A DNA stretch of 64,000 bases, from assembly GCA_963813815.1 (NCBI GenBank), contig CAWFAD010000006.1, forward strand, positions 37,719 to 101,718, read 5' to 3'. The DNA comes from an uncultured bacterium. GTDB taxonomy: Bacteria > Krumholzibacteriota > Krumholzibacteriia > Krumholzibacteriales > Krumholzibacteriaceae. Below, piece by piece: positions 47,883 to 63,900 of this stretch. Within the stretch, counting starts at the first letter, position 1; every line of letters begins with the position of its first letter. Both the position numbers and the translations under genes were made by a program. The notes under the pieces are model-generated. The model ran no database searches and was not told where the DNA came from. It worked only from the letters and a program-made list of their open reading frames with translations.

Positions 47883-50519
47883 ATGCGAGGGGTTTACGCT
47901 CTCGTAGCAACGGTCTTTCTCGCGTCAATACTCATTCCCGCACTTTGTTCGGCGGGCGACGTGGGAAAGATCGTGGGTACGGTGACCGACAAGGCGACGG
48001 GGAGACCGCTCGTCTACGCGAACATCGTGCTCGTCGGGACGCCGCGGGGCGCGATGTCGCTCACGGACGGCACCTATACGATTCTGAACGTCACCCCGGG
48101 AACGTACGAGGTGCGGGCGTCGTACATGGGATACAAAACGGTGGTGGTGCGCAACCTCGTGGTCGAGCCCGATCTGACGAGAAACGTCGATTTCGCGCTC
48201 GAGGAAACCGTCGTCGGCACGCTCGAGCCCATCATCGTCGAGGCGGAGAAACCGCTCGTGCAGGTCGACGTCACCTCGACGCGAAAGATGCTGCTCGCCG
48301 ACGAGATACAGGCGCTGCCCGTCGACAATCCCGTGCAGATCATCAACTACATCGCCGGCTCGAGCGTCGACGCGACCGGGACGCACATTCGAGGCGGGCG
48401 CGCGACCGAGGTCGGGTACTACATCGACGACGCTCCCGTCCAGGATCCCATCGCGAACAACGCCCTCATCAACGTTTCGAACCAGGCCGTGAACGAGATG
48501 ATCATTTACACGGGCGGGTTCAACGCCGAGTACGGCAACGCGAGCTCCGGCATCGTCAACATCATCACGAGCGAGGGGAGCGACACTTTCGAGGGAGCGA
48601 TCGAGTACCGGATGTATCTCCCCATCCAGATGTTCTGGACGAAGTTCGACGGCCCGGATCCGCTCGACACGGGGGAGATGCGTTCCCGCTTCTACGTGTC
48701 GGGACCCATCGTCAAGCGGCCGCAGATGGATTTCAAGTACGCCCTCGCCATCGAGGCGAGCGATTGGGACGATTGGCAGCCGAGGGTCGAGGCGCTCGAT
48801 CGCCCGGGAAAGCAGCGCATCTACGACGGCGTGCTGACCTTCCGCCGGGGCAACACGAAGATCAAGGGCGTTCTCAACATCAACAACGACACCCACGTGT
48901 CGAGCTACGACGCGTCCCGGCTCTACGAGCGGATATACGTTCCCGAAACCTGGCGCCACACGCAGAACGACACCTACCGCGGCGCGCTCAACGTGAGCCA
49001 TATGTTCTCCGAGAAATCGTTCGCCTCGCTCAGTATGAGCGTCCTCGACGGCGAGCTCGAGATCGCGCAGCCCGGCATGAAGTGGGATCCGGCCCTCAGC
49101 TATCAGGAGAATCAGGACCTCTACGACTGGGACCTCGACATCAGGCGCGACGAGAACAACTTCATCGCGAGCGGCGACAACCCGTACTACGATTATCAGA
49201 AGAACCGCATCTACACCTTCCGCGGGAGCTACACCCACCAGCAGTCCCGGAACGAGGTCAAATCCGGATTCGATCTCAACGTCTATGACGTGCAGGAGAT
49301 CGACGTGTTCGCGTCGACGCAGAACTACTACATCTATGAATACGACGTGCAACCGCGCGCCGGAGCCTTTTACACGCAGGACAAGCTCGAGTTCGAGGGC
49401 CTCATCATGAACGCGGGGCTCCGGCTCGACTTCTTCGACCCGAACGCGCAGGTGCCGAAGGACTGGAACCAACCCTACGATCTGACCGCGCCTGACTCGC
49501 TCTGGCACGGGCCCGATCAGGACAACGCGCCGATCGAGCTCGAGCGGTACGACGAGGAGGGAAACTACCTCGGGGGCGGCCTCGAGGACGCGACGGTCAA
49601 GTGGAAGCTGAGCCCGCGTCTCGGCGTCTCGTATCCGATCACGGACGACAGCTATCTGCACCTTCAGTACGGCCACTTCTTCCAGATGCCCTCGTTCGAC
49701 TACCTGTACGAAAACGCGACCTTCCACACGCGCGGGCGCTGGATGATCAAGGGCAATCCGGATCTCGAGGCCGAGAAGACGGTCGCGTACGAGATCGGCG
49801 TCAACCACCTTCTCAGCACGAACGTCGCGGTCGACGTCACGTTCTTCTACAAGGACATCACGGACATGACCGAGGGGATCGTGGTCGGACCGACCGCCAT
49901 TTCGAATCCGCAGGGCCGCACCAACTACGTCCTGTTCGACAACGTCGGCTACGGCAACGTCCGCGGGTTCGAAATCAACCTCGTGAGGCGCCACATCAAC
50001 AACTGGCACTATCACGGCGCGTACACGTTCATGGTCGCGAAGGGCCTCAGCTCGAACGTCAACGAGGGCAACCTGCGGCGGTTCGACAGCGAGGAGTACC
50101 CGACGCAGCAGTTCTACCTCGACTGGGACCGGCGGCACAACTTCCTGCTCACGGGCGGCTACAGCCTGCCGAAGAACTGGAGCGTCGACGTGGCGCTCAA
50201 CTATGCCACCGGCGCCCCCTTCACCGATCCCACCACGCTGACGAGAAAGCCCACGCGAAACAACGCGCGCTTCCCCTCGATCAACAACGTGGACGTGGAG
50301 CTTCACAAGCTGTTCGAGATTTTCGGCCTCGATAGCGACGTTTTCCTCCGCGCCTCGAACGTGTTCAATCAGCGCAACATCATCGCGTGGGACGACACCG
50401 ATCAGGACTTCAGAAACTGGTACGTCGCGACCGACGGCAGCTATCTCGGACCCTTCGGCGACTACACGATCTACGGAGAGCCGCGAAGCATACTGGGCGG
50501 CGTCAAGGTGAGCTTCTAG
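47883..50519 (+). CDS. TonB-dependent receptor (carboxypeptidase-regulatory-like N-domain, plug, barrel)
   Basis: GKIVGTVTD..TG.PL, IRGGR..EV.Y.ID, GGFNAEYG, SPRLGVSYPI, GNPDLEAEKT, C-terminal Phe. Confidence 0.93.
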   Translation: MRGVYALVATVFLASILIPALCSAGDVGKIVGTVTDKATGRPLVYANIVLVGTPRGAMSLTDGTYTILNVTPGTYEVRASYMGYKTVVVRNLVVEPDLTRNVDFALEETVVGTLEPIIVEAEKPLVQVDVTSTRKMLLADEIQALPVDNPVQIINYIAGSSVDATGTHIRGGRATEVGYYIDDAPVQDPIANNALINVSNQAVNEMIIYTGGFNAEYGNASSGIVNIITSEGSDTFEGAIEYRMYLPIQMFWTKFDGPDPLDTGEMRSRFYVSGPIVKRPQMDFKYALAIEASDWDDWQPRVEALDRPGKQRIYDGVLTFRRGNTKIKGVLNINNDTHVSSYDASRLYERIYVPETWRHTQNDTYRGALNVSHMFSEKSFASLSMSVLDGELEIAQPGMKWDPALSYQENQDLYDWDLDIRRDENNFIASGDNPYYDYQKNRIYTFRGSYTHQQSRNEVKSGFDLNVYDVQEIDVFASTQNYYIYEYDVQPRAGAFYTQDKLEFEGLIMNAGLRLDFFDPNAQVPKDWNQPYDLTAPDSLWHGPDQDNAPIELERYDEEGNYLGGGLEDATVKWKLSPRLGVSYPITDDSYLHLQYGHFFQMPSFDYLYENATFHTRGRWMIKGNPDLEAEKTVAYEIGVNHLLSTNVAVDVTFFYKDITDMTEGIVVGPTAISNPQGRTNYVLFDNVGYGNVRGFEINLVRRHINNWHYHGAYTFMVAKGLSSNVNEGNLRRFDSEEYPTQQFYLDWDRRHNFLLTGGYSLPKNWSVDVALNYATGAPFTDPTTLTRKPTRNNARFPSINNVDVELHKLFEIFGLDSDVFLRASNVFNQRNIIAWDDTDQDFRNWYVATDGSYLGPFGDYTIYGEPRSILGGVKVSF

Positions 50520-50540: not shown

Positions 50541-52406
50541 ATGAAACGGGCATTATGGTTCTGCATCGCCGCCATCCTCGTCATATGCATCGCCGGGGAG
50601 TGCGCGGCGAAAATCAATCCCCTGCGAAAGGACAAACTCATCTCGCTCGGACGCGCGCGGCCGGAGGCGAGTCCGCTGCAGACCGTGGAGGATATGTTCC
50701 TGAACGATCTCCACATCGGCGCCCTCTGGTTTCCCGCGGTCTCGAACAGGGGGTACGTCGGATACTCGGATATCAGCGCGTTCTATCCGGGAGGGGGCGA
50801 TCAGTCGATCGTCTGGCAGGCGGGGATGTGGGCCGGGGGATACGTCGAGGGCAGGTCGAACGCGTGGCGCTACCTCGGCTCGGACGGCTCGGACGGCGAT
50901 CCGCCCCAGTACGACGCGCTCGATGAGGAGGCGGTCGTCGAGACCGAGGCCGATTTCGCGCTGCCGTATCCCTACCGCCGGATGACGATCCGGGTCAACA
51001 CGGCGCTCAAGCCCATCCTCGAGAGCGGCGGGGAAGAGGTCGACGGGGACCTCGGCATAAACGTGACCTACGAGTGGCACCAGTGGGGAGTGCCGGGGTA
51101 CGACCACTGGGTGTTCGTTCACGTGACGATCGAGTTCACGAAGCCGATCGACGATTTCTACTGGGGATGGATGAGCGACTGCGACTGCGGCGACGTCAAT
51201 CTCGCCGACGTCTATTTCGACGATTACGCGGGCTGGGACGAGTCCCGGAAATTCTGCTACATGCGGGACTGGGATTACGATCCGCTGCCGGGGCAGCTCG
51301 AGGCGGCGAGCACGGCCGACAGCCTGTGGCTCTCGCCCAACGTGGTCGCGCAGGTGCTCCTCGCCGCACCTCCCGCCGGCGGGCTCGTCACCGCGGCGCC
51401 CGATCCCGCGCAGAAGTGGGTGTCGAAGAACTACTGGGACTGGAACAACGACGTCTCGGGCGCTCAGGACTGCTATGACCGGCTCGCGGGCGCCTGGGTG
51501 AATCCATTCCCTCCGGCGGACGATTTCGACTACCGAATCCTGAACGGCGTCGGTCCATACGATGTCACGGCGGGGGACGTGGCGGAGTTCTGGATGGCGT
51601 ACGTCCTCGGCGAAGGGTACGACGAGGATTCGCACGCCACCTTCGACCTCGGCACGGTCGTCGACCACGTCGACGCGGCGCAGGCGTTTTTCGAGGGCGG
51701 CATGGTCATACCGGCCGAGAGCTTCCCGCCGCAGACGCCCGATCTCGCGCCCGACCTCGCGGCGGACGTCGAGGCCGACGAGATTCTCGTGCACTGGGCT
51801 CCGTACGCGGACCTTCCCGGAGGCGCGGCCGCGGACAGCTTCTTCGTGTACACGAGCACGACGAGCAAGCTCGGCCCCTGGACGCGGGTCGCCGCGTTCG
51901 ACCAGACGACGCTCGATGCCACGGTGAAGCTCATTCCGGGCTTTTACACGTACATCTGGGTCGAGGCCTACGACGCGGACGGCGGCGTCGGGAGCAACCC
52001 GTACGCGCTCCAGAGCCGCCTCTACACGACTGACGAGGACGGGGTGCTGCGGGCCAACAACGGCACGATCACGAGCGTCATCGGCAACACGGCGGCCCAG
52101 AGCGGCCTCGATCTCGTGACGGTCGCTCCGAATCCCTACATCGGATCGAACGAGGCGGAGCTTCTGCCGTACGAGACGCTTCTCGGCTTCCATAACCTCC
52201 CCGAGCGATGCACGATCTACATCTACACGATGCTCGGGAACGTGGTCGCCATCATTCCTCACGACGCCGCCTCGGGCTCGGAGTTCTGGGACATGACGAC
52301 GCTGTCGGGCGAATCGATCGCGTCGGGCCTGTACTTCTATCGCGTCAAGGCGGATGGCGGCGGAGAGGCAACTGGAAAGTTCGCCGTCATCAAGGGGCAG
52401 CGGTAG
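50541..52406 (+). CDS. Secreted acidic protein with T9SS-like C-terminal domain
   Basis: Signal peptide; C-terminal VAPNPY...F.NLP..CTI.IYT..G..V...WD......IASGLYFY.V. Confidence 0.8.
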   Translation: MKRALWFCIAAILVICIAGECAAKINPLRKDKLISLGRARPEASPLQTVEDMFLNDLHIGALWFPAVSNRGYVGYSDISAFYPGGGDQSIVWQAGMWAGGYVEGRSNAWRYLGSDGSDGDPPQYDALDEEAVVETEADFALPYPYRRMTIRVNTALKPILESGGEEVDGDLGINVTYEWHQWGVPGYDHWVFVHVTIEFTKPIDDFYWGWMSDCDCGDVNLADVYFDDYAGWDESRKFCYMRDWDYDPLPGQLEAASTADSLWLSPNVVAQVLLAAPPAGGLVTAAPDPAQKWVSKNYWDWNNDVSGAQDCYDRLAGAWVNPFPPADDFDYRILNGVGPYDVTAGDVAEFWMAYVLGEGYDEDSHATFDLGTVVDHVDAAQAFFEGGMVIPAESFPPQTPDLAPDLAADVEADEILVHWAPYADLPGGAAADSFFVYTSTTSKLGPWTRVAAFDQTTLDATVKLIPGFYTYIWVEAYDADGGVGSNPYALQSRLYTTDEDGVLRANNGTITSVIGNTAAQSGLDLVTVAPNPYIGSNEAELLPYETLLGFHNLPERCTIYIYTMLGNVVAIIPHDAASGSEFWDMTTLSGESIASGLYFYRVKADGGGEATGKFAVIKGQR

Positions 52407-52434
52407 CCTGCGCGCAGGCAGGGGAGGAAGGATC

Positions 52435-53472
52435 ATGAAAAGGATTTTCATAGCGTTCGCCCTGCTCCTCGTCGCGCTCCCGCAGTTCGCCGGGGCGCAG
52501 ACGAGCGACCGGGCCGGGAGCACCGGCGCTCTCTTTCTCAAGCTCGGCATGAGCCCGCGGGCGGCGGCTCTCGGGAACACCTACGTCGGGATCGCCGACG
52601 ACATCAGCGGCCTCTTTCTCAATCCCTCGGCCGTGGCGTTTCTCGATGGGCAGCAGTTTTTCATCGCCGAGGCCGAGTATCTGCTCGACACGCGCGTCGT
52701 GGCCGGCGCCTACTCCTTTCCGCTGCCGGAGGCGGTCGGCGGGCGGATCGCCGTCCACTACACCGGATTCCTGTCCGGCGACATGACGATGACCACCGCG
52801 ACCGACATCGACGGCTCGGAGACAGGAGAGTCGTTCTCGTGGAACGAGCTCGCGATCGGCGTCACGTACGCGCGCAAGTTCACGGACCGCTTCTCGATCG
52901 GCGGAGGAGCGAAGTTCATCCGCACCGACGCGGCGGATTACTACAGCCAGACGGTCGGGTTCGACGTCGGCACGCTCTACCGCAGCGGATGGCGGAACTT
53001 CCGCATCGGCATGGCGGTCACGAACTTCGGGCCCGACATGCGGTTCAACGGCAGGTACACCAACACGTACATCTCGAGCATCTGGCAGGTCACCGTGCCG
53101 GAGGATTTCGGGTACTACGCGCTGCCGATATCGCTCCAGGTGGGGATCGCCGACGATCTGTACACGGCGGAGAAGATCCGCGTCACCGGCGGGCTCGACT
53201 ACAGCCATCCGAACGATCTCGCCGAGCGGATCCACGCGGGCGCGGAGTTCGCCTATGACGAGATGTTCTTCGTTCGGGGCGGTTTCTTCATGGACATGGA
53301 CCGAAGCGGGGTCGAGGACCCGGCGATATCGGGCGACGACGCGCTCGACCGGTTCATGGAGTTCCGCTTCGGGGCCGGGATCAAGATCAGCAACGTCGCC
53401 GTTGACTACGCGTGGCAGGACATCGAGGCGCTCGGAAGCGTGCACCGCTTCTCGCTCGCGTTCGCGCTCTGA
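52435..53472 (+). CDS. PorV/PorQ-family outer-membrane beta-barrel
   Basis: FLKLGMSPRAAALG, NPS, FDVGTLY, N.GP, DYAW..LGSVHRFSL. Confidence 0.85.
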   Translation: MKRIFIAFALLLVALPQFAGAQTSDRAGSTGALFLKLGMSPRAAALGNTYVGIADDISGLFLNPSAVAFLDGQQFFIAEAEYLLDTRVVAGAYSFPLPEAVGGRIAVHYTGFLSGDMTMTTATDIDGSETGESFSWNELAIGVTYARKFTDRFSIGGGAKFIRTDAADYYSQTVGFDVGTLYRSGWRNFRIGMAVTNFGPDMRFNGRYTNTYISSIWQVTVPEDFGYYALPISLQVGIADDLYTAEKIRVTGGLDYSHPNDLAERIHAGAEFAYDEMFFVRGGFFMDMDRSGVEDPAISGDDALDRFMEFRFGAGIKISNVAVDYAWQDIEALGSVHRFSLAFAL

Positions 53473-53633
53473 GCGGCCGCCGGCCGGCCGGGCCGGCGAT
53501 CGGATGAACGGTTTGTCGCGCGGGAAGGCTCCGCGGGGCCTTCCCGCGCTTATTTCATAAACATTTTTAGATAATAATGAACGCGCCCGCGCAAGTCTTT
53601 TCAGCGGCGCCAGCATCGCTGTATATTATTGTA

Positions 53634-53663
53634 TTGACATAAGTAGCAGTGATGTGAGAGAAT
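53634..53663 (+). promoter_or_regulatory. Candidate sigma70 promoter of the peptide/radical SAM locus
   Basis: TTGACA (53634-53639), 18 nt spacer, GAGAAT preceded by TG, in an AT-rich intergenic region. Confidence 0.45.
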
Positions 53664-53696
53664 TCGGCCTCGGCTCGAGAGGGGGTGAAAATATAT

Positions 53697-53816
53697 ATGG
53701 AATTCATACCTGAGCTGATGGTGACGGAGAGCCTGAAGGACGACATTTTGAGCTCATCCGACAGGTACCCGGTTCACTACAAAACGAAGATGTGCTACTT
53801 CTGCTATGATCGATGA
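53697..53816 (+). CDS. Putative RiPP precursor 1, 39 aa: MEFIPELMVTESLKDDILSSSDRYPVHYKTKMCYFCYDR
   Basis: GAGGGGGTG RBS; shares its N-terminal leader with the neighbouring ORF; upstream of an RRE-rSAM gene. Confidence 0.8.
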   Translation: MEFIPELMVTESLKDDILSSSDRYPVHYKTKMCYFCYDR

Positions 53817-53841
53817 TGAGGCAAAATAGGAGGATAGCGCC

Positions 53842-53961
53842 ATGGAGTTCATTCCCGAAATCATGGTCATTAAAGGGGCGCCGGGCAAATCCGCACCCAA
53901 GAAAATGGTGTACAACTATTTTGTAAGCGTCTGTGGGAGCTCCTGCGCAATAGATCCTTAA
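53842..53961 (+). CDS. Putative RiPP precursor 2, 39 aa: MEFIPEIMVIKGAPGKSAPKKMVYNYFVSVCGSSCAIDP
   Basis: AGGAGG RBS at 53828-53833; same MEFIPE(I/L)MV leader encoded with different codons. Confidence 0.82.
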   Translation: MEFIPEIMVIKGAPGKSAPKKMVYNYFVSVCGSSCAIDP

Positions 53962-53972
53962 TAATTTGAGAC

Positions 53973-54010
53973 GGGCTACTAGCCTGCACTCCGTTGCGGA
54001 CTAGTAGCCC
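53973..54010 (+). terminator. Stem-loop between precursors and maturase (partial terminator or mRNA stabiliser)
   Basis: GGGCTACTAG-C-CTGCA-CTCCGT-TGCGG-A-CTAGTAGCCC followed by AGTTTCCTT. Confidence 0.7.
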
Positions 54011-54086
54011 AGTTTCCTTCGTAGAGCATTTGCGCGCCGCCGCACGCTATGTAGAAGCGATAGAGTGCGCTCAACAACGAACGAAT

Positions 54087-55493
54087 ATGGAACATCTGTA
54101 TCCTCTATTAAGCCCCAGAATCATCTTCAGGCAGATCAAGAAGGACGAGAAGTACGATCCAAATTGGCCGCTATCGACGGCAAGGAGATCGATCTCAACG
54201 AGGCCTCCGAGAGGGTGGTGAGGAATGCGACGGCGGTAGCTCAGTGCGGGAGATTGCGCTCAAGCTGGCCGCGGTTTTCGACAAGACGGCGCCGGAGACG
54301 ATGCTGTCGCGTCTCGAATCGCTTCTATGCACGCTGCGAGATCAGGGGGTCATCGAGCTTTTGAATGAGCCGGTCGAGGGCAAACGCCGCCGGATCATCC
54401 CGAAGCAACCCCACGGAACACAGCCCCTCATGAGCATGTTCATGGAAGTGACGAACGCATGCAATTTGAAGTGCATCCATTGCTATTTGGGCGATATCGA
54501 TGCGAGGCGCGATCTGCCGCTCGAGCGACGTCAAGAGGGTGCTGGATCAGTATTCCGATGTCGGAGGCGAGCACCTCGCCATATCCGGAGGAGAGCCGTT
54601 CGTCAGGAAAGATATATTGGAGATAGTCGAATATGCGTCTTCACAGCCGCTCTTCGTCACCATTCTCTCGAATGGAACCCTGATAACCGACGAAACGGCG
54701 AAGAAGCTGAGTCAATACAATATAAAAGAAGTGCAGATCAGCCTCGACGGGGCGAAGACCGAAACGCACGACGCCCTTCGCGGCATGAAGGGAGCACAGA
54801 AAGCCGGCTGTCAGCGCGATCGAGGCGTTGCGGCGCGAAGGGATAAGCGTCGATGTCGCCACGGTCGTCAATCGTCTTGAATATGAGCGAGCTGCTGGAT
54901 CTAGTCGATTTCTGCAAGAAATGGGACATTGTGCCCGGGCTCTCTCACCAGCACGCGAAGGGACGGGCGGTCGAGGAGGGCATGGCGTATCAGCTCGACG
55001 TATCATCGAGCACTATCGGGAGCTGATAAAGGTTCACCGGTACATCGAGGAGACACACGCCGCCATAGCCTCTCCACTTTTAAGGTGCCGGCGAAGCCGA
55101 ATCTCGAATGTCGCACAGGTGTTCGGCGGGTCTCACTTCCTGCGCCTGCGTTCGAGCGGGGACGTCTACGCCTGCTTGGATTTGAATGCGCCCGGCGCCA
55201 AGCTCGGGAACATACATGAGCAGAGCCTCGGCGAAATATGGAATTCGGACCACCCGTTTTTAAACATGCTCCGAACCTCTTCCTTGAAGGATTTGACCTT
55301 CTGCCGGGACTGCAAGCATTTCGTATACTGCAAGGGAGGGTGTCCGGCGACGGCCTACGAGGTCTGGGGAGACTACAACATGCCCGATCCGAAAAACTGC
55401 GCTTATTTCACTCTGGCCCTGGAGCACCTGACGTTCGAGCCGGGCGAAGAGACCGAAGACGCGGACCGAACCATCATCCGGTGCGACAAGTAG
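54087..55493 (+). CDS. Radical SAM/SPASM peptide maturase with N-terminal PqqD/RRE domain (multiple frameshifts in the assembly)
   Basis: Pieces across frames: LNEASERVV..CDG..SVREIA..L....L..L.DQGVI (RRE), TNACNLKCIHCY, ISGGEP, SNGTL, QISLDG..ETHDALRG, GDVYAC..LGNI, CRDCKHFVYCKGGCPA...DPKNC (SPASM). Confidence 0.88.
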
Positions 55494-55558
55494 CCCGCGG
55501 CGGGCAATCGTGATACTATGAAGCTGGAGGACGTGTCGCCGCGGGCGATGATTTATCG

Positions 55559-57271
55559 ATGGCAGCCACCGTACGGTTTCTGAAATTCCTCAGGCCCTAT
55601 TGGAAAAAGGGGGCCTGGGCCTTTTTATTCATGCTCCTTTCGGTCGGGCTGCAGCTGCCGATGCCGTTTCTGACCAAATACCTCGTCGATGAAGTCATCG
55701 CGATAAAATCCTTTAAGCTCCTCAATCTCATAGGGCTCGCACTCGTCGGATTCTTGATCGTTCATGCCGCCTCGAATTTTCTCCAGAGCTACCTCCTTGC
55801 CACCTTCCGGGGCCGCGTGCTGTTCGACATACGCATGAAGCTCTTCGAGCGGGTTCAACGGGCGTCGCTCTCGTTCTTTCAGAGCAAGCAGACCGGCTAC
55901 CTCATGTCCCGCCTGTCGGACGACGTCAACGCGGTGCAGGGACTGTTGGCCGAGACCCTCGTGACGGCGGGTCAGAACGTCCTCACGTTCGTCGCCGGCA
56001 TCGTCTGCACGATATACATCCATCCGAAGCTCGCCCTCATCTGCTTTGGCGTCTTGCCCCTCTATGCGATATCGATCGCCGTTTTCAACAAGAGGATCAG
56101 GTCGCTGAGCACGGAGACGCGCGAAAGTTTCGCGCTCGTTCAGAAGGATCTGCAGGAGCTCCTCTCGGGCATCTCGTTGATCAAGGCCTTCACCGCCGAG
56201 GGGCGGGCGACCATGCGGCTTTTGTCCGGTCTCAAGAAGGCCATCCGCGCCGAAGTGAGGCTCGATATCACCGCCACGCTCGCTTCCATCAGCTCGGGGA
56301 TGATTTCGGCCATCGGGCCGGTGGCGCTTATCTGGTACGGCTGCGGCGAGATCATGAGGGGAAATCTGACGGTCGGCGGATTGCTCGCCTTCAGCGCTTT
56401 CATCGGATATCTCTTCGGTCCGATCGGCATTCTCTACAGCCTGAACGTGCAGGTGCAGCGCTCGCTCGCCGCGGTGGAGACGGGTTTTCGAAATTCTGGA
56501 CGTCGAGCCGGAGAAGGACGCCGAGACCGACTTCGAAATCCGGCAGGGAAGCCGTGACGTACGAAAGAGTGTCGTTCGCGTACGGCGAAGACGAGCCGGT
56601 GCTGGATGACATTTCCTTCGAGATTCCGCCGGGACGCACCGCCGCCCTCGTCGGCCGCTCCGGCGCGGGCAAGACCACGCTCGCGTCCTTGCTCTTCAAT
56701 TTCTACCGGCCGTCGCCGGGCCGCATTCTCGTAGACGGCCGGGACATCGGCGAGATGGCGCTCAAGTCGCTGCGAAGCCAAGTGGGGCTCGTGGCGCAGG
56801 ATTCGTTTCTCTTCTCCGACACCGTGCGGGAGAACATCCGTTTCGGCCGGCCGGGCGCGTCGGACGAGGAGATCGAGCGCGCGGCGAAGATGGCGCACGC
56901 CCACGAGTTCATCATGGAAATGCCGGACGGGTATCTCTCGCGGATAGGCGAGCGGGGCTCCACCCTCTCCGGCGGGCAGCGTCAGCAGGATATCGATCGC
57001 CCGGGCGATCCTAAAGGATCCCAAGATACTCATACTGGACGAGGCGACCTCTCAGGTGGACAACGAGTCGGAGCGGCTGATTCAGGAAGCGCTCGAGAAA
57101 TTCATGCAGGGGAGAACGACCATCATCATCGCGCATCGCCTCTCCACCGTCCAAAAGGCCGACGTCATACTGGTGCTGCACGAGGGCCGCGTCGTCGATC
57201 GGGGACGGCATCTCGAGCTTCTCGAGAGGGAAGGCATATATCGGGAGCTCTACCGCGGGCTGCAGGGATGA
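55559..57271 (+). CDS. ABC exporter, fused TMD-NBD (frameshifts near 56485 and 56990)
   Basis: TM domain with [43 protein letters not shown]; no N-terminal C39 peptidase domain. Confidence 0.9.
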
Positions 57272-57290
57272 CGGCCTGCGCGGTCGGAAC

Positions 57291-57941
57291 CTAGCGCTTT
57301 ATCTCCGCCTGCAGGTCCCGAATGCTCCCGATGAGGCCGCCCGTCGAGTAGAAATTCCCGCTACCGGGATAGAATAGAAATGCCCCGAGCTTCGCGGGAT
57401 CGGGCGCGTCTTTCTCGCCGAGGACGCTTTCGTCCGCCTTGATGTCGACGATCTCCCCGATGAACATCGTGTGCGTGCCGATTTCGACCGTCTTGACGAG
57501 CCGGCACTCGACGACGAGGGGGAACTCGGCGAGGTAGGGCGCGTTGACGAGATCGCTTCTTGCCGGCGTGAGCCCCGTCGCAGCGAGCTTGTCGATCTCC
57601 CTCCCTGAGACGCTCCCGAAGAAGGCTGTCTCCCGCGCATAGGTCTCTGACGGGATATTCACCGTGAAAGCTTTCGAGGCGATGATGTTCCCGTAGGAAT
57701 GGCGGGATTTCGTGAGGGATACCGTGACCGAGGGGGGATCGGAGCAGCAGATGCCGACCCAGGAGGCCGTCATCATATTGGGCGTTCCCACGGAGTCGTA
57801 CGAGCCGATGACCCAAACGGGGCAGGGCGGCACGAGCGTTCTTGCGCCGAGCGACTTCTTGCATTCGCCGTCCATCGCGGCGGCGAAAAGCGTGGACGCC
57901 GCGAGGGCGCATACGAAAGCGATTCTCGAAGATCTCCGCAT
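57291..57941 (-). CDS. Flavin reductase-like (flavoredoxin) family protein with signal-like N-terminus
   Basis: PNMMTASWVG, FTVNIPS, GSVSGREIDK, VECRL..GTHTMFIGEI. Confidence 0.88.
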   Translation of the reverse strand: MRRSSRIAFVCALAASTLFAAAMDGECKKSLGARTLVPPCPVWVIGSYDSVGTPNMMTASWVGICCSDPPSVTVSLTKSRHSYGNIIASKAFTVNIPSETYARETAFFGSVSGREIDKLAATGLTPARSDLVNAPYLAEFPLVVECRLVKTVEIGTHTMFIGEIVDIKADESVLGEKDAPDPAKLGAFLFYPGSGNFYSTGGLIGSIRDLQAEIKR

Positions 57942-57969
57942 GGTCACCTTCCTTGTTGGTGGTTTCGAG

Positions 57970-58857: not shown

Positions 58858-58922
58858 GATGAATGACGCCGCTCGATGGCGGCGCGGCGGCCGGGGGGCA
58901 GCTCGGCGCGACGGAGGGAACG

Positions 58923-59529
58923 ATGAGCTATCTCACGAAACGACAACGGGAAATACTCGAGTTCGTGCGGTCTTTTCAGGCGGCGAAGGGGTACGCCCCC
59001 TCCCTCGAGGAGATCGCGGCGCATTTCAAGCTCTCGGCCGTGAGCACGGTGCACGAGCACCTCGCGAACATGAGCCGGAAGGGCGTGCTGCGCCGCGGCT
59101 GGAACAGGGCGCGCTCGATCGAGCCGCTCGCCTCGCGCGACGCGCGCGAGGTGCCGCTCGCCGGCGCGGTCGCGGCGGGCTCGCCGATCGAGGCGATCGA
59201 GACGCCCGGGAGCGTGGCGATTCCGCCCGACCTCGCGGGCCGCGGCGAGAGCTTCGCGCTCCGCGTCAAGGGAGAGTCGATGACGGGGGACGGCATTCTC
59301 GACGGAGATCTCATCGTCGTCGAGAAGCGGCGGCGCGTCGAGAACGGCTCGCTCGCGGTCGTGCTCCTTCGGGGCGGCGAGGCGACGGTGAAGCGGTTTT
59401 ACCAGGACGGGGAACACGGTGAGGCTCCGGCCTTCGAACCCCGCGATGGAGGAGATCGTCGTTCCAGCGGCCGAGGTCGAGGTGCTCGGCGTCGTCACGG
59501 GTCTCGTGCGGCGGTACCGGCGGGTCTGA
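58923..59529 (+). CDS. lexA: LexA repressor (one-base frameshift near 59415)
   Basis: LTKRQREIL, PSLEEIA, VAAG (cleavage site), GESM (Ser), ATVKRF (Lys); C-terminus PSNPAM...LGVVTGLVR in the next frame. Confidence 0.93.
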
Positions 59530-59583
59530 CGGACGCTCGCGGGGAGGGGTGACGGGCGCGGCGCGGCGCGGCGCCGCCGCGGT

Positions 59584-59799
59584 ATGGCTATCACGTATCG
59601 GAAGGTCGACGTGCTTCTCTCGGGCGGCGGCGGCGAGGTGAGGGAAGGGGATTGTCTTCTTCTCGAGCTCGGCCGGCGGCCCGGCCCCGGCGAGCTCGCG
59701 CTCGTGAAGCGCGGCGGCGCCGAGTTTCTGCGCCGGGGGGACGGGTGCGACGGGGCGGAGGTGGTGGGGGTGGTGATCGGCATCAAGCGAAAGCTCTGA
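59584..59799 (+). CDS. Small protein resembling a truncated LexA/S24 C-terminal domain
   Basis: VREGDCLLL...GELALV..G...LRR...EVVGVVIGIKRK parallels the LexA C-terminal strands. Confidence 0.55.
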   Translation: MAITYRKVDVLLSGGGGEVREGDCLLLELGRRPGPGELALVKRGGAEFLRRGDGCDGAEVVGVVIGIKRKL

Positions 59800-59824
59800 T
59801 CCTGCGGCGCGCGGGGGGAGCGCG

Positions 59825-60994
59825 GTGGAACGGGAGATTCTCCACGTCAACACGGACGATTTCTACGCGTCGGTGCTGCGGCTCCGCGACGCCACGCTTC
59901 GCGGGAAGGCGGTGGTCGTGGCGGGCGCCTCGTCGCGAGGCGTCGTCTTTTCGGCCTCCTACGAGGCGCGCCGCGACGGCGTCTCGCGCGGCATGACCGC
60001 GACCGCGGCGCGGCGCCTCGCGGGCCGGGCCGTTTTCGTGCCGCCCGACTGGGGGCTCTTTCGGCGGGCGTCGGCGGCCGTCTTCGCGGTGCTCGGGCGC
60101 TACAGCCCCGCCGTCGAGACTTCCTCGCTCGACGAGGGGTATATCGACTACACCGGATGCGATCGCCTCTTCGGACCGGCTCCCGACGCCGGGAGGCGCA
60201 TCAAGGGCGAGATCATTCGCGAGACGGGGCTCGAGGTCTCGCTCGGGATCGCCTCGAACAAGCTCGTGAGCCACGTCGCCTCGCGCTCCGCCAAATGCGC
60301 GAACCTCGTCGACGTCTATCGCGGGTACGAGAGATCGTTTCTCGCGCCGGTTCCGATCGAGCGGTTTCCGCTCGTCGGCGAGAGGCGGGCGCCGGCGCTC
60401 CGCGAGCTCGGGATCGGCTCGGTCGGCGACGTTCTCGCTCTTCGCGCGGGAGATCCTCGCCGCGTGCTTCGGCCCGTGGGGGGAGCGCCTCCACCGCGGC
60501 GCGCTCGGGGAGGATCCCGCGCCCGTGCGGACGCATCCCGCGCCCGACGAGCGATTCGCGGTCGAGGAGACGCTCGAGCCCGATAGGGTCGACACGCGCC
60601 TTCTCGAGGGCGCGCTCTACCGGCTCGCCGAGCGCCTCGGCGAGCGGCTGCGCGCCGAGCGCTCGCTCGCGGGCGCGGTCGAGCTCGAGGTGCGGTACGC
60701 GGACGGTCTCGCGGCGCGGGGGGCCGGGCGGCCGGGGAGCCCGCGGCTGACGACCGCGCGATCTTCGAGGCGGCGCGCGCGGTTTTCGCGCGCGTCTACG
60801 CGCGGCGCGTGCGGGTGCGCACACTCTCGCTCGCGGGGCGTCGGATCGAGCCCATGCCGCTCCAGCGCGATCTTTTCGCCGGGGAGCGCGAGGCGGCGGC
60901 GGAGCGCGCCGGGCGGCTCTACGGCGCGCTCGACCGGCTGCGGGCCGTCCACCCGGGACGCGCGGCGCCGGCATTCGGGAGGTCGCTCGCATGA
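59825..60994 (+). CDS. Y-family DNA polymerase (DinB/ImuB-like; frameshifts near 60440 and 60740)
   Basis: ILHVNTDDFYAS, ASYEARRDGV..GM, SLDEGYID, SLGIASNKLV; clamp-like QRDLF near the C-terminus. Confidence 0.88.
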
Positions 60995-63900
60995 GCTTCG
61001 CGCATCTTCGCGTCCACTCGTGCTTCTCGATGCTCGCCGGGACGAGGCGGGTCGAGGATCTCGTCCGCGCCGCCGCGGCGGCCGGGATGCCGGCTATCGC
61101 CCTCGCCGACACGGACGGGATGCACGCCGTCGTGCCGTTCCAGCGCGCGTGCGCCGAGGCGGGCGTGGAGCCCCTTTACGGCGTCGAGATCACGGAGCGC
61201 GGCGGCGGCCGTCGAAGGCGCGGCGCGCGCCACGTTTCTCGCGCGAACGCGCGAGGGGTACACCGAGCTCTGCCGCCTCACGACGCGCCGGCGCCTCGAC
61301 GAAAATTTCTCCCTCGCCGCCGCGCTCGACGCCGTCTCGGAGAACGTCGTCGTCCTCGCCGAGGACACCCGCGTGCTCGGGCGCCTCGCGGGACGGCGGC
61401 GCGCGTTCGCCGCGCTCCCCGTTTCGATCGGACGCGAGGCGGCGGAGCGCCGCTGGCGCCTTCGGCGGCTCGCTTCGCACCTCGGGCTGCGAACGGTCGC
61501 GGCGGGGGACGTTTTCTTCATGGAGCCGCGGGAGCATTTCACGCACCGCGTTCTCACGGCGATACGCACGCGCACGACGGTCGGCACGCTCCCCGAGGGA
61601 GCGGCGGCGCCGGTGTCGGCGTTTTTCCACTCTCCCGAGGACGTGCGCCGCGCCTTCCACGACGACCCCGCCTCAGTCGAGGCGGCGCTCGAGATCGCGG
61701 AGGAGTGCCGGTTCGATCTCGATCTCTCGACGCGAAAGCTCCCGCGTTTCAGGACGCCCCGCGGGGAGGAGGCCTCCGCGTCGCTCCGGAGGATCGCGCT
61801 CCAAGGCCTTCGCGACCGTCTCGGGAGCGTTCCGCCCGGCGAGTGGCGGGAGGCGCTCGAAACGCTCGAGCGCGAGCTCGCCGTGATAGAGGCGAAGGGG
61901 CTCGCCGACTATTTTCTCATCTGCTGGGACGTCGTGCGGTTCGCGCGCGGGCGCGGGATGCCCTCCCTCGGGCGGGGGTCGGCCGGGAACAGCATCGTCT
62001 CGTACGCGCTCGGGGTGACGCACGTGAATCCGCTCCGCCACAACCTCTTCTTCGAGCGCTTTCTCAACCCCGAGCGCGAGCACCTGCCGGACTTCGACAT
62101 CGACTTCGGGACGGACGACCGCGAGGAGGTGCTCCGCTACATCTTCCGCCGCTACGGCAAGGAGCGCGTCGCGATGATCGGCACCTACTCGACGCTCAAG
62201 GCGCGCGCGGCGCTCCGCGAGACGGCCAAGGCGCTCGGCATCCCGGAGGGGGAGGTCGCGCCCTTCGTCGAGCGGCTGCCGTATTTCACCTCCGTCGATC
62301 GGCTCGAGGAGATCTGCGCCATATCGCCCGCATCGATCGGCATCCCCTTCGACCGCGAGCCGCTCCGCACGCTCATGCGCCTCGCCCTCGCGATCGGGGA
62401 GTTTCCCCGGCACATGGCGACGCACCCGTGCGGGCTCGTCATCTGCCCCTCGCCGATCACGGATTTCATGCCGCTCCAGCGCGGCGAGAAAGGGTACGAG
62501 ATCACGCAGTGGTCGATGCACGAGGTCGAGGCGGCGGGGCTCCTCAAGATCGACGTCATCGGCCAGAAGGGGCTCGCCGTCATCAAAGAGGCCGCGCGGA
62601 TGGCGGAGGAGAACGAAGGGCGCCCGCTCCACCCGGAGCGGATCGATTACACGAACGATCCCCAGGCGAGGCGGCTCATCCGCGAGGGGCGCACCGAGGG
62701 GTGCTTCTACATCGAGTCGCCGGGGATGATCCAGCTCATCCGGCAGGCGCGCTGCGAGGATTTCGAGGTGCTGACGGCGCTCTCCTCCATCATACGGCCG
62801 GGCGTGTCGAGCTACGGGGGCAAGCGGCAGTACCTCCACCGCCATCTCGGCCTCGAGCCCGTGACGCTCCTCCATCCCTCGCTCGAGCCCGCGCTCCGCG
62901 ACACCTACGGCTGCCTCATCTATCAGGAGCAGGTGATACGCGCCGCGGTCGAGGTCGCCGGGATGAGCCTCGGCGAGGCGGACGGGCTGCGGCGATGCAT
63001 GGCGTTCAAGAACATCGACGACGAGACGATGAGCGATTACCGCGGCTCCTTCATGCGCGGGGCGATCGAGCGCGGCGTTCCGGAGGAGACGGCGGCCGAG
63101 ATCTTCCGGCAGATCGCCTCCTTCGCCGGGTACGCCTTCTGCAAGGCGCACTCGGCCTCCTTCGCCCTCGAGTCGTTCGAGAGCGCCTACTGGAAGGCGC
63201 ACTACCCGGCCGAGTTCATGGCGGCGATCCTCTCGAACGGCGGCGGGCTACTACTCGCAGGAGGAGTATCTCGAGGAGGCGCGGCGAATGGGAATCGCGA
63301 TCCTCCCGCCGTGCGTGAACGAGAGCGCGATCCGCCACCGCGGGCGCGGCCGCGAGCTCCGGCTCGGCCTCATGCAGGTGAAGGGGCTCTCGTCCGGCAC
63401 GGCGGAGCGCATCGTGCGGGATCGGCCGTACCGCTCGCTCGGGGAGCTCGTCGAGCGCGTGCGCCCCTCGCGCGACGAGGTCGAGGCGCTCGTCGCGTGC
63501 GGGGCCTTCCGGTGTCTCGGCCGCACGAGGCCGCAGCTCCTCTGGGAGCTTCGGCTCCTCGAGAGCGGAAAGCCCGCGGCGCGCGATCTCATCCCGTCGC
63601 TCCCCCGGATCGACGACTACGACCTGCCGCGAAGCGTCGAGCGCGAGCTCGAGACGCTCGATCTCGCCGTGAGCGCCCATCCGCTCGCGATGTTCGCGGG
63701 ACGCCTCGAGGCGCTCGCGCGGGAGCGGCCGATCGTCCGCTCGTGCGATCTCGCGAGCCGCGTCGGGAGCGAGGTCGAGCTCGTCGGCTGGAAGGTGGCG
63801 TGGAAGTCGGCGCGGACATCGAGCAGCGCCGAGGAGATGATCTTCGTCACCTTCTCGGACGAGTGGGGACGCTTCGAGGCGACGTTTTTCCCCGCGGCCT

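Follow-up and report, generated by a model that had tools for sequence, protein, structure and literature searches.

Radical S-adenosylmethionine (SAM) maturases with a SPASM domain are one of the chief origins of novel cross-link chemistry in peptides, as well as of antimicrobial peptides with a narrow spectrum. In the sactipeptide and ranthipeptide systems (AlbA/subtilosin, SkfB, CteB, PapB and StsB) for peptides that are made on ribosomes and modified after translation (RiPPs), a RiPP recognition element (RRE) is fused N-terminally to the radical SAM and SPASM domains, short cysteine-bearing precursors are encoded directly upstream and a dedicated ATP-binding cassette (ABC) exporter is present. 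The mycofactocin (MftA/MftB/MftC) and pyrroloquinoline quinone (PQQ; PqqA/PqqD/PqqE) systems likewise employ a radical SAM-SPASM enzyme and a PqqD-type domain on a small precursor, and SuiB of the streptide system and the RaS-RiPP maturases (WgkB) adopt the same three-domain fold, with the RRE binding the precursor leader. Here we analyze a 64,000-nucleotide stretch of DNA from an uncultured bacterium of the Krumholzibacteriaceae (contig CAWFAD010000006.1; hereafter the window, in whose numbering all coordinates are given), in which the region 53697–57271 holds two small open reading frames (ORFs), a hairpin and the genes for an RRE-radical SAM-SPASM enzyme and an ABC exporter. This locus is a genuine radical SAM RiPP operon of an undescribed family with a textbook architecture: the kind of system is very well known, and what is novel is the unnamed enzyme clade and the unrecognised precursor family. 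We favor, with a probability of about 0.7, the reading that the operon came in by horizontal transfer and serves to make a ribosomal, radical SAM-modified and exported peptide, and that the frame changes interrupting its two large genes are most likely consensus errors.

A sequence-only reading of the window had proposed twin precursors, a strong stem-loop, an RRE-radical SAM-SPASM gene and an exporter, all co-oriented behind one AT-rich promoter region. The twin 39-residue ORFs, the hairpin, the enzyme gene and the exporter gene are all found on the + strand at the positions listed below, and the precursor, hairpin, enzyme and exporter layout was borne out. As for the promoter, the stretch is AT-rich and contains one promoter-like site, but such sites are not above chance in the region (2 found versus 1.4 expected). 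The features of the locus are:

53518–53549, + strand, terminator-like hairpin belonging to the PorV-like gene upstream, a 14-pair stem followed by TTATTTCA, marking the left edge of the locus
53634–53663, + strand, promoter-like site TTGACA-18 nt-GAGAAT (10 of 12 matches) in an AT-rich leader region of 48–55% GC
53697–53816, + strand, precursor peptide 1, 39 residues, putative leader MEFIPELMV
53842–53961, + strand, precursor peptide 2, 39 residues, putative leader MEFIPEIMV
53973–54010, + strand, stem-loop 3′ of the precursor genes, 16-nucleotide arms with a U-rich tail after it
54087–55493, + strand, RRE(PqqD)-radical SAM-SPASM peptide maturase, assigned from Pfam and the intact homologue P0001
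55559–57271, + strand, ABC exporter, an MsbA-like half-transporter with transmembrane and nucleotide-binding domains (ABC_membrane, ABC_tran)
57291–57947, − strand, convergent flavin-reductase-like gene (PF01613, 1.5e-35)

The maturase gene is spread over 12 frame segments in the window, which together encode CNLKCIHC, SGGEP and all of the SPASM cysteines. Its fragments match the Pfam families Radical_SAM (PF04055, 2.2e-14) and SPASM (PF13186, 1.7e-11), and TIGR04085 scores 54.3 bits (cut-off 27) on window positions 55005–55490. A frameshift-aware alignment to the intact, 466-residue P0001 (P numbers denote homologous proteins) gave 384 identities over 463 positions (83%), and P0001 itself contains PqqD (PF05402, 27.5 bits, cut-off 23.4), Radical_SAM (1.8e-31) and SPASM (2.3e-13). 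The N-terminal region had been called PqqD/RRE-like from the letters of the window, and the assignment held up in all four of the intact homologues scanned, which score above the PqqD cut-off (P0003, 29.3 bits; P0004, 27.5 bits; P0005, 24.8 bits, in addition to P0001). No Pfam family is found on the window's own N-terminal fragments, because the domain is split there by two frame changes (54156 and 54221). The SPASM cysteines, which correspond to P0001 residues 343, 361, 404, 407, 413, 417 and 436, are retained by the family members and also occur in the window. Twelve aligned family members have the three radical SAM cysteines and the SPASM cysteines in common, as well as a family-specific C-terminal cysteine located in a short Cys-Asp-Lys/Ser tail.

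An AlphaFold model of the enzyme (mean predicted local distance difference test (pLDDT) score 81.9, predicted template modelling score 0.84) consists of N-terminal strands (residues 5–37) and helices (residues 39–86), followed by the radical SAM barrel and the SPASM region. By sequence profile the closest solved structures are SkfB (7.8e-40), PqqE, CteB and SuiB, and the PqqD structure 3g2b matches enzyme residues 16–90 at 3.7e-4. By fold they are CteB (1.1e-17), SkfB (5.5e-17) and SuiB (1.1e-15), with template modelling (TM) scores of 0.50–0.57. Both profile and fold place SkfB and CteB nearest among the solved structures.

The family to which the enzyme belongs is small. A search of 5.8 billion proteins recovered nine members (P0001 and P0153–P0160; 36–100% identity, E ≤ 4.6e-92), below which the next match shows 29% identity. 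In an exhaustive search of representative proteins, 3 proteins matched at E ≤ 1e-30, 19 at E ≤ 1e-10 and 1,296 at E ≤ 0.001. P0001 matched 79 NCBIfam families at E ≤ 0.001, and the best 25 of these 79 all fell below their curated cut-offs (bits/cut-off: ScmE 167.4/400, MftC 162.5/265, StsB 146.1/625, PqqE 125/381, AlbA 103.4/850). The named maturase families whose cut-offs are not reached also include ScmF, WgkB and DynA. The suggestion that the locus may represent an undescribed family is thus supported by the scores of the intact homologue below the NCBIfam equivalog cut-offs and by the nine-member clade. Among plasmid records 666 matched, all below 60% identity, with the best at ~30% (MftC) and PqqE also among the best. 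In viral contigs three stretches matched a pattern of P0001, none of which encodes a relative, and scans of metagenome and genome contigs with a four-sequence alignment and generic radical SAM motifs returned only ~24–36% identity, with no family member at any of 167 loci.

The locus was compared with the closest described systems. It has the domain fusion, the upstream cysteine-bearing precursors and the exporter in common with the sactipeptide and ranthipeptide systems. However, P0001 is below the StsB and AlbA cut-offs and the PapB model reaches 16 bits versus a cut-off of 340 on the N-terminal enzyme fragment of the window. In addition, each peptide here has only two cysteines, both at the extreme C-terminus, and the enzyme family has its own conserved Cys-Asp-Lys/Ser tail. 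The best NCBIfam matches include MftC and PqqE, both below cut-off; unlike in the mycofactocin and PQQ systems, the RRE is fused rather than a separate protein, the rest of the pathway genes are absent from the locus and the exporter suggests that the product is secreted and is no cofactor. SuiB is related in fold (TM 0.56–0.57), but the WgkB model scores 147 versus a cut-off of 650 and the peptides contain neither Lys-Trp nor a WGK motif. A quorum-sensing shp/rgg context is a feature of streptide-type RaS-RiPP systems, and the locus described here is not so linked.

The two precursor ORFs are preceded by the ribosome-binding sites GGGGGTG and GGAGG, located 6–10 nucleotides 5′ of their ATG codons. 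In a six-frame search of the whole 2.53-Mb genome, the motif EF[IVL]PE[ILV]M was found only in these two ORFs. Within the nine codons that they share at their start, 7 of 27 bases differ; five codons differ synonymously and one exchanges Leu for Ile. This mostly synonymous divergence indicates that the translated peptide is under selection and is not a chance ORF. Beyond the ninth codon the two sequences are fully unlike each other. Both, however, finish in a cysteine- and aromatic-rich end with two cysteines and an aspartate at position 38: peptide 1 has a Cys/Tyr-rich core that terminates in C-Y-F-C-Y-D-R, while the different core of peptide 2 terminates in C-G-S-S-C-A-I-D-P. Judged by sequence, the pair is the signature of a conserved leader with a variable core. 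A leader-start look-alike within the enzyme gene, ATGGAATTCGGACC at 55238, was put down to chance.

The precursors had been described as belonging to no named class, which agrees with the database results: neither peptide matched a Pfam or NCBIfam family at E ≤ 0.1. They do not match the SCIFF, PqqA, MftA or subtilosin-type precursor models, having two cysteines rather than six, and they lack what we take to be the C-terminal motifs of MftA and PqqA. The leader pattern had no match in viral contigs, and the papers listed by a full-text literature search with the leader strings are all unrelated. A profile search with both peptides against the 5.8 billion proteins returned only peptide 2 of the window itself (P0151) and one 32-residue entry, encoded on a 6,192-nucleotide contig, that is identical to peptide 1 from Met8.

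These results bear on an alternative in which the small ORFs are not substrates of the enzyme, having arisen by chance or serving another role, and the enzyme matures a cofactor or a protein encoded elsewhere. That the peptides match no family and that so few copies of them were recovered would fit such a view, but the small number of matches says little because small ORFs are often not called in protein collections. Against it stand the almost solely synonymous divergence of the shared leader, the fusion of the RRE to the enzyme and the location of the ORFs directly 5′ of the enzyme gene, co-oriented with it and each bearing a ribosome-binding site. The near relatives and the complex model described below also argue against it, and we regard it as highly improbable.

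Near relatives of the locus were found as contigs from four public sequencing runs belonging to four studies (X1–X4); their pieces are 85–99% alike to the window and were read from alignment tables. Three of them cover the peptide genes without frame-breaking gaps (X4, 53667–53835; X2, 53746–53870; X1, 53717–54019). In X1, an in-frame CAT inserted after 53948 lengthens the peptide 2 core by one Ile, as read from the window sequence. In X2, the peptide 2 leader and the hairpin align, but the core between them (53871–53949, 79 nucleotides) does not at 85% likeness and, from the record coordinates, is replaced by a stretch of the same length. X1 additionally contains ~400 nucleotides between the enzyme and exporter genes that include a 40-nucleotide copy of the start of peptide 2 (53842–53881). 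This ~400-nucleotide stretch is flanked by a 27-nucleotide duplication of 55473–55499, a hint as to the way precursor genes are acquired. Leader-bearing peptide genes are therefore present beside the homologous enzyme gene in near relatives from other samples, as the sequence-only reading would have it, and the pattern of conserved leader and hairpin, varying core and, in one relative, an extra leader-like copy argues against the non-substrate alternative.

A structural model of the complex, calculated from the enzyme alignment and peptide 1, had a median score of 0.62, compared to 0.09 for the best of three controls. Of the solved complexes, 116 of 157 attained this mark, as did 2 of 215 mismatched pairs. 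At least 60% of the contacts agree among runs, and the partner pLDDT is 46–47, indicating that the peptide's own fold is uncertain. In the model, peptide residues 1–13 contact enzyme residues 31–41 (an RRE strand), 61–87 (RRE helices) and 457–465 (the C-terminal tail). Together with the selection signature of the leader and the contigs of the near relatives, the model leads us to infer that the two peptides are probably substrates of the enzyme.

The hairpin between the precursor and enzyme genes (53973–54010) is composed of 16-nucleotide arms that are 88% complementary and a 6-nucleotide loop. A 136-nucleotide fold at this site has a z of −2.9, with 1 of 200 shuffles as stable. It is kept in the X1 and X2 contigs even though adjoining DNA is deleted or replaced. 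The hairpin probably acts in attenuation or RNA stabilisation, and would so govern how much precursor is made relative to enzyme.

The exporter gene encodes ABC_membrane (1.9e-52) and ABC_tran (4.3e-25) domains, read in three frames. Pfam revealed no C39 peptidase domain, with the membrane domain at the very start of the protein, and the NCBIfam bacteriocin_ABC model aligns only from model position 176 on. This agrees with the earlier statement that no leader protease is encoded in the locus, where none was seen. The junction between the exporter gene and the convergent flavin-reductase gene is crossed by X1, X3 and X4 pieces (57271–57400), and the flavin-reductase homologue sits elsewhere in same-genus genomes. 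By eye, the flavin-reductase-domain protein has a hydrophobic start that resembles a signal or lipoprotein leader, which would be unusual for this cytoplasmic family.

In the proposed mechanism, the two precursor genes would give rise to 39-residue peptides that have the N-terminal leader in common but differ in their Cys/Tyr-rich cores. The leader (approximately residues 1–13) would dock as an extra strand on the N-terminal PqqD-like RRE of the maturase, and the radical SAM core and two auxiliary SPASM Fe-S clusters would carry out H-atom abstraction in the core peptide to generate intramolecular cross-links. The hairpin would keep precursor mRNA in excess over enzyme mRNA, the ABC half-transporter would export the product and removal of the leader, if any, would be performed by a protease encoded elsewhere. 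As to the nature of the cross-links, the presence of two cysteines per core and of SkfB and CteB as nearest structures makes thioethers of the sactipeptide or ranthipeptide type the best guess, a tentative one that we place slightly short of even odds; C-C or C-O links to aromatic residues are the next most likely. The clade might instead define a new RiPP class, in which the RRE and the enzyme's own conserved, cysteine-bearing C-terminal tail would grip an unusually short leader of ~9–13 residues between them, an undescribed cross-link (for example, Cys or Tyr to the conserved Asp 38) would be installed on hypervariable cores and multiple swappable precursor genes per locus would form a diversifying cassette. 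This proposal, which draws on the complex model, appears quite unlikely.

The operon differs in composition from its surroundings. The GC content drops from ~0.63–0.68 in the flanks to 0.48–0.60 across 53.6–56.4 kb. None of 40 relatives has a family member (best match 34% identity), nor do 207 other genomes of the phylum, in which the best match is nearly full length and scores 217 bits, a value that the window's own 228-residue enzyme fragment alone also reaches. In three same-genus genomes (G012, G015 and G008), homologues of the 40.0–43.1 kb genes are found within ~0.1–2.7 kb of homologues of 58.0–58.7 kb and lexA. As the flank homologues are nearly joined in these genomes, 43.1–58.0 kb is a variable insert, and by base composition and gene distribution the part of it that is plainly foreign and horizontally acquired is the low-GC RiPP operon. 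To the left of ~53631 the relatives give no cover (depth 0 at 53500–53630 in all four runs), which is not evidence of absence. The ~15-kb insert also holds a gene for a TonB-dependent receptor (47883–50516), one for a 621-residue protein with no Pfam family (50541–52403) and a PorV-like gene (52432–53469) that scores 26 bits, just below the cut-off of 27.

The window copy of the operon is interrupted by frame changes. The enzyme gene contains 11 single-base changes, 7 of them extra and 4 missing bases (54156, 54221, 54526, 54806, 54876, 54997, 55007, 55053, 55060, 55112 and 55150), none of which falls in a homopolymer, and no in-frame stops. The exporter gene contains three extra bases (~56479, 56552 and 56986). 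All 14 changes in the locus are thus of ±1 base, 10 extra versus 4 missing; neither larger deletions nor nonsense changes occur. They could be errors of the assembly consensus or, alternatively, true mutations, with the locus a decayed, non-functional remnant within a foreign island on which selection no longer acts. Bacterial pseudogene decay shows a deletion bias and slippage at repeats. The profile observed here, with only ±1 changes, insertions in excess and the 11 enzyme changes outside homopolymers, is unlike that of bacterial pseudogenes, and all catalytic motifs and cysteines are intact.

Frame changes are also not confined to the foreign DNA. Four +1 changes, called relative to same-genus genomes, lie in native genes nearer the contig end, one in lexA (~59400), one in imuB (60437) and two in dnaE2 (~61200 and 63237); they are hidden in ORF lists because off-frames stay open in GC-rich DNA. 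These genes belong to a lexA-imuA/B-dnaE2 SOS-mutagenesis cassette (58863–64000) at the contig end, the last base of the window being the end of its contig, C6. No frame changes were seen in the four genes at 38.5–43.1 kb or in rpoB and rpoC, which have open frames of 1,279 and 1,470 residues. Minimal-segment tiling and ORF picking by GC content at third codon positions, tried for a genome-wide frameshift rate, gave no discrimination at 65% GC, and the background was judged instead from the relatives' ORFs, rpoB and rpoC. A second, intact lexA-imuB-dnaE2 cassette is present at ~40–5300 of contig C1 (8783 nucleotides). Its products are 97% (LexA), 91% (ImuB) and 89% (DnaE2) identical in amino acid sequence to those of G015, compared to 88%, 82% and 73% for the window copy. 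The C1 cassette is most simply explained as a second, co-binned population, or else as a paralogue, and does not decide between error and decay.

The relatives allow a more direct comparison. At every one of the 8 frame-change sites covered by contigs from independent runs the change is missing, among them 54156, 54222, 54525, 54807, 56479, 56552 and 56986; those at 56479 and 56552 are absent in all four runs, and that at 56986 is absent in X2 and X4. One relative's piece without the frame changes, 320 nucleotides in length, differs at only 3 other letters. When the window is read with its frames corrected, 25 of 39 coding base differences from the relatives fall at third codon positions (p = 8e-5), a test that covers the 40 best-supported base differences, with 254 further differences outside it. 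In the exporter gene, 24 of 34 differences are at third positions in the frame-corrected reading, versus 18 of 34 when read straight through. Both the lack of the changes in near-identical contigs elsewhere and, in each of the frame segments, the placing of differences from relatives on third codon positions argue against decay. The 14 frame changes are likely to be consensus errors near the contig end.

Several observations weigh against the operon as we read it. Its frame changes are dense: 14 fall within 3.2 kb, ~7 times the density of the remainder of the contig end, where the adjoining 6.7 kb hold 4, and the left flank, rpoB and rpoC have none; such unevenness is not obviously predicted by a purely technical cause. 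The X2 contig, at a depth of 3.5, lacks 313 nucleotides (54020–54332) that take in the spacer and the beginning of the enzyme gene, where the RRE is encoded, with 54019 joined to 54333 via 7 other letters. This loss reflects either a naturally truncated variant or decay, or a chimeric low-depth contig. Co-occurrence of peptide and enzyme genes is shown for near relatives only. Similar RRE-leader complexes have already been solved (SuiB-SuiA and ChlB-ChlA), so that the pass of the complex model may reflect likeness and not binding. Finally, a published profile defined on CteB (PMC10288494) lists F112, F152, T186, S210, H363 and Q364 as positions in proximity to the catalytic site. The equivalent residues of P0001, assigned by hand from a HMMER alignment to 5wgg_A with a numbering offset of 3, are Y134, S167, L194, S219, L362 and D363, giving one identity and one aromatic match. 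For the six positions listed there, this mismatch provides no specific support for CteB-like thioether chemistry. The density of the frame changes and the 313-nucleotide deletion, combined with the foreign and dispensable nature of the locus, are what speak for decay; set against the evidence above, we consider a decayed remnant unlikely. The preferred reading remains that of an exported-peptide operon with errors in its consensus.

The locus carries a warning, in that a live gene cluster can be mistaken for a dead one when ±1 frame changes crowd together close to the end of a contig. Intact homologues of the enzyme exist (P0001 and others), so work on the family is independent of the broken copy. 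With its rarity, a very short putative leader and a conserved C-terminal tail in modelled contact with that leader, this tiny, unnamed clade with its unfamiliar precursors is a reasonable and clean target for finding the product and, possibly, a new linkage.

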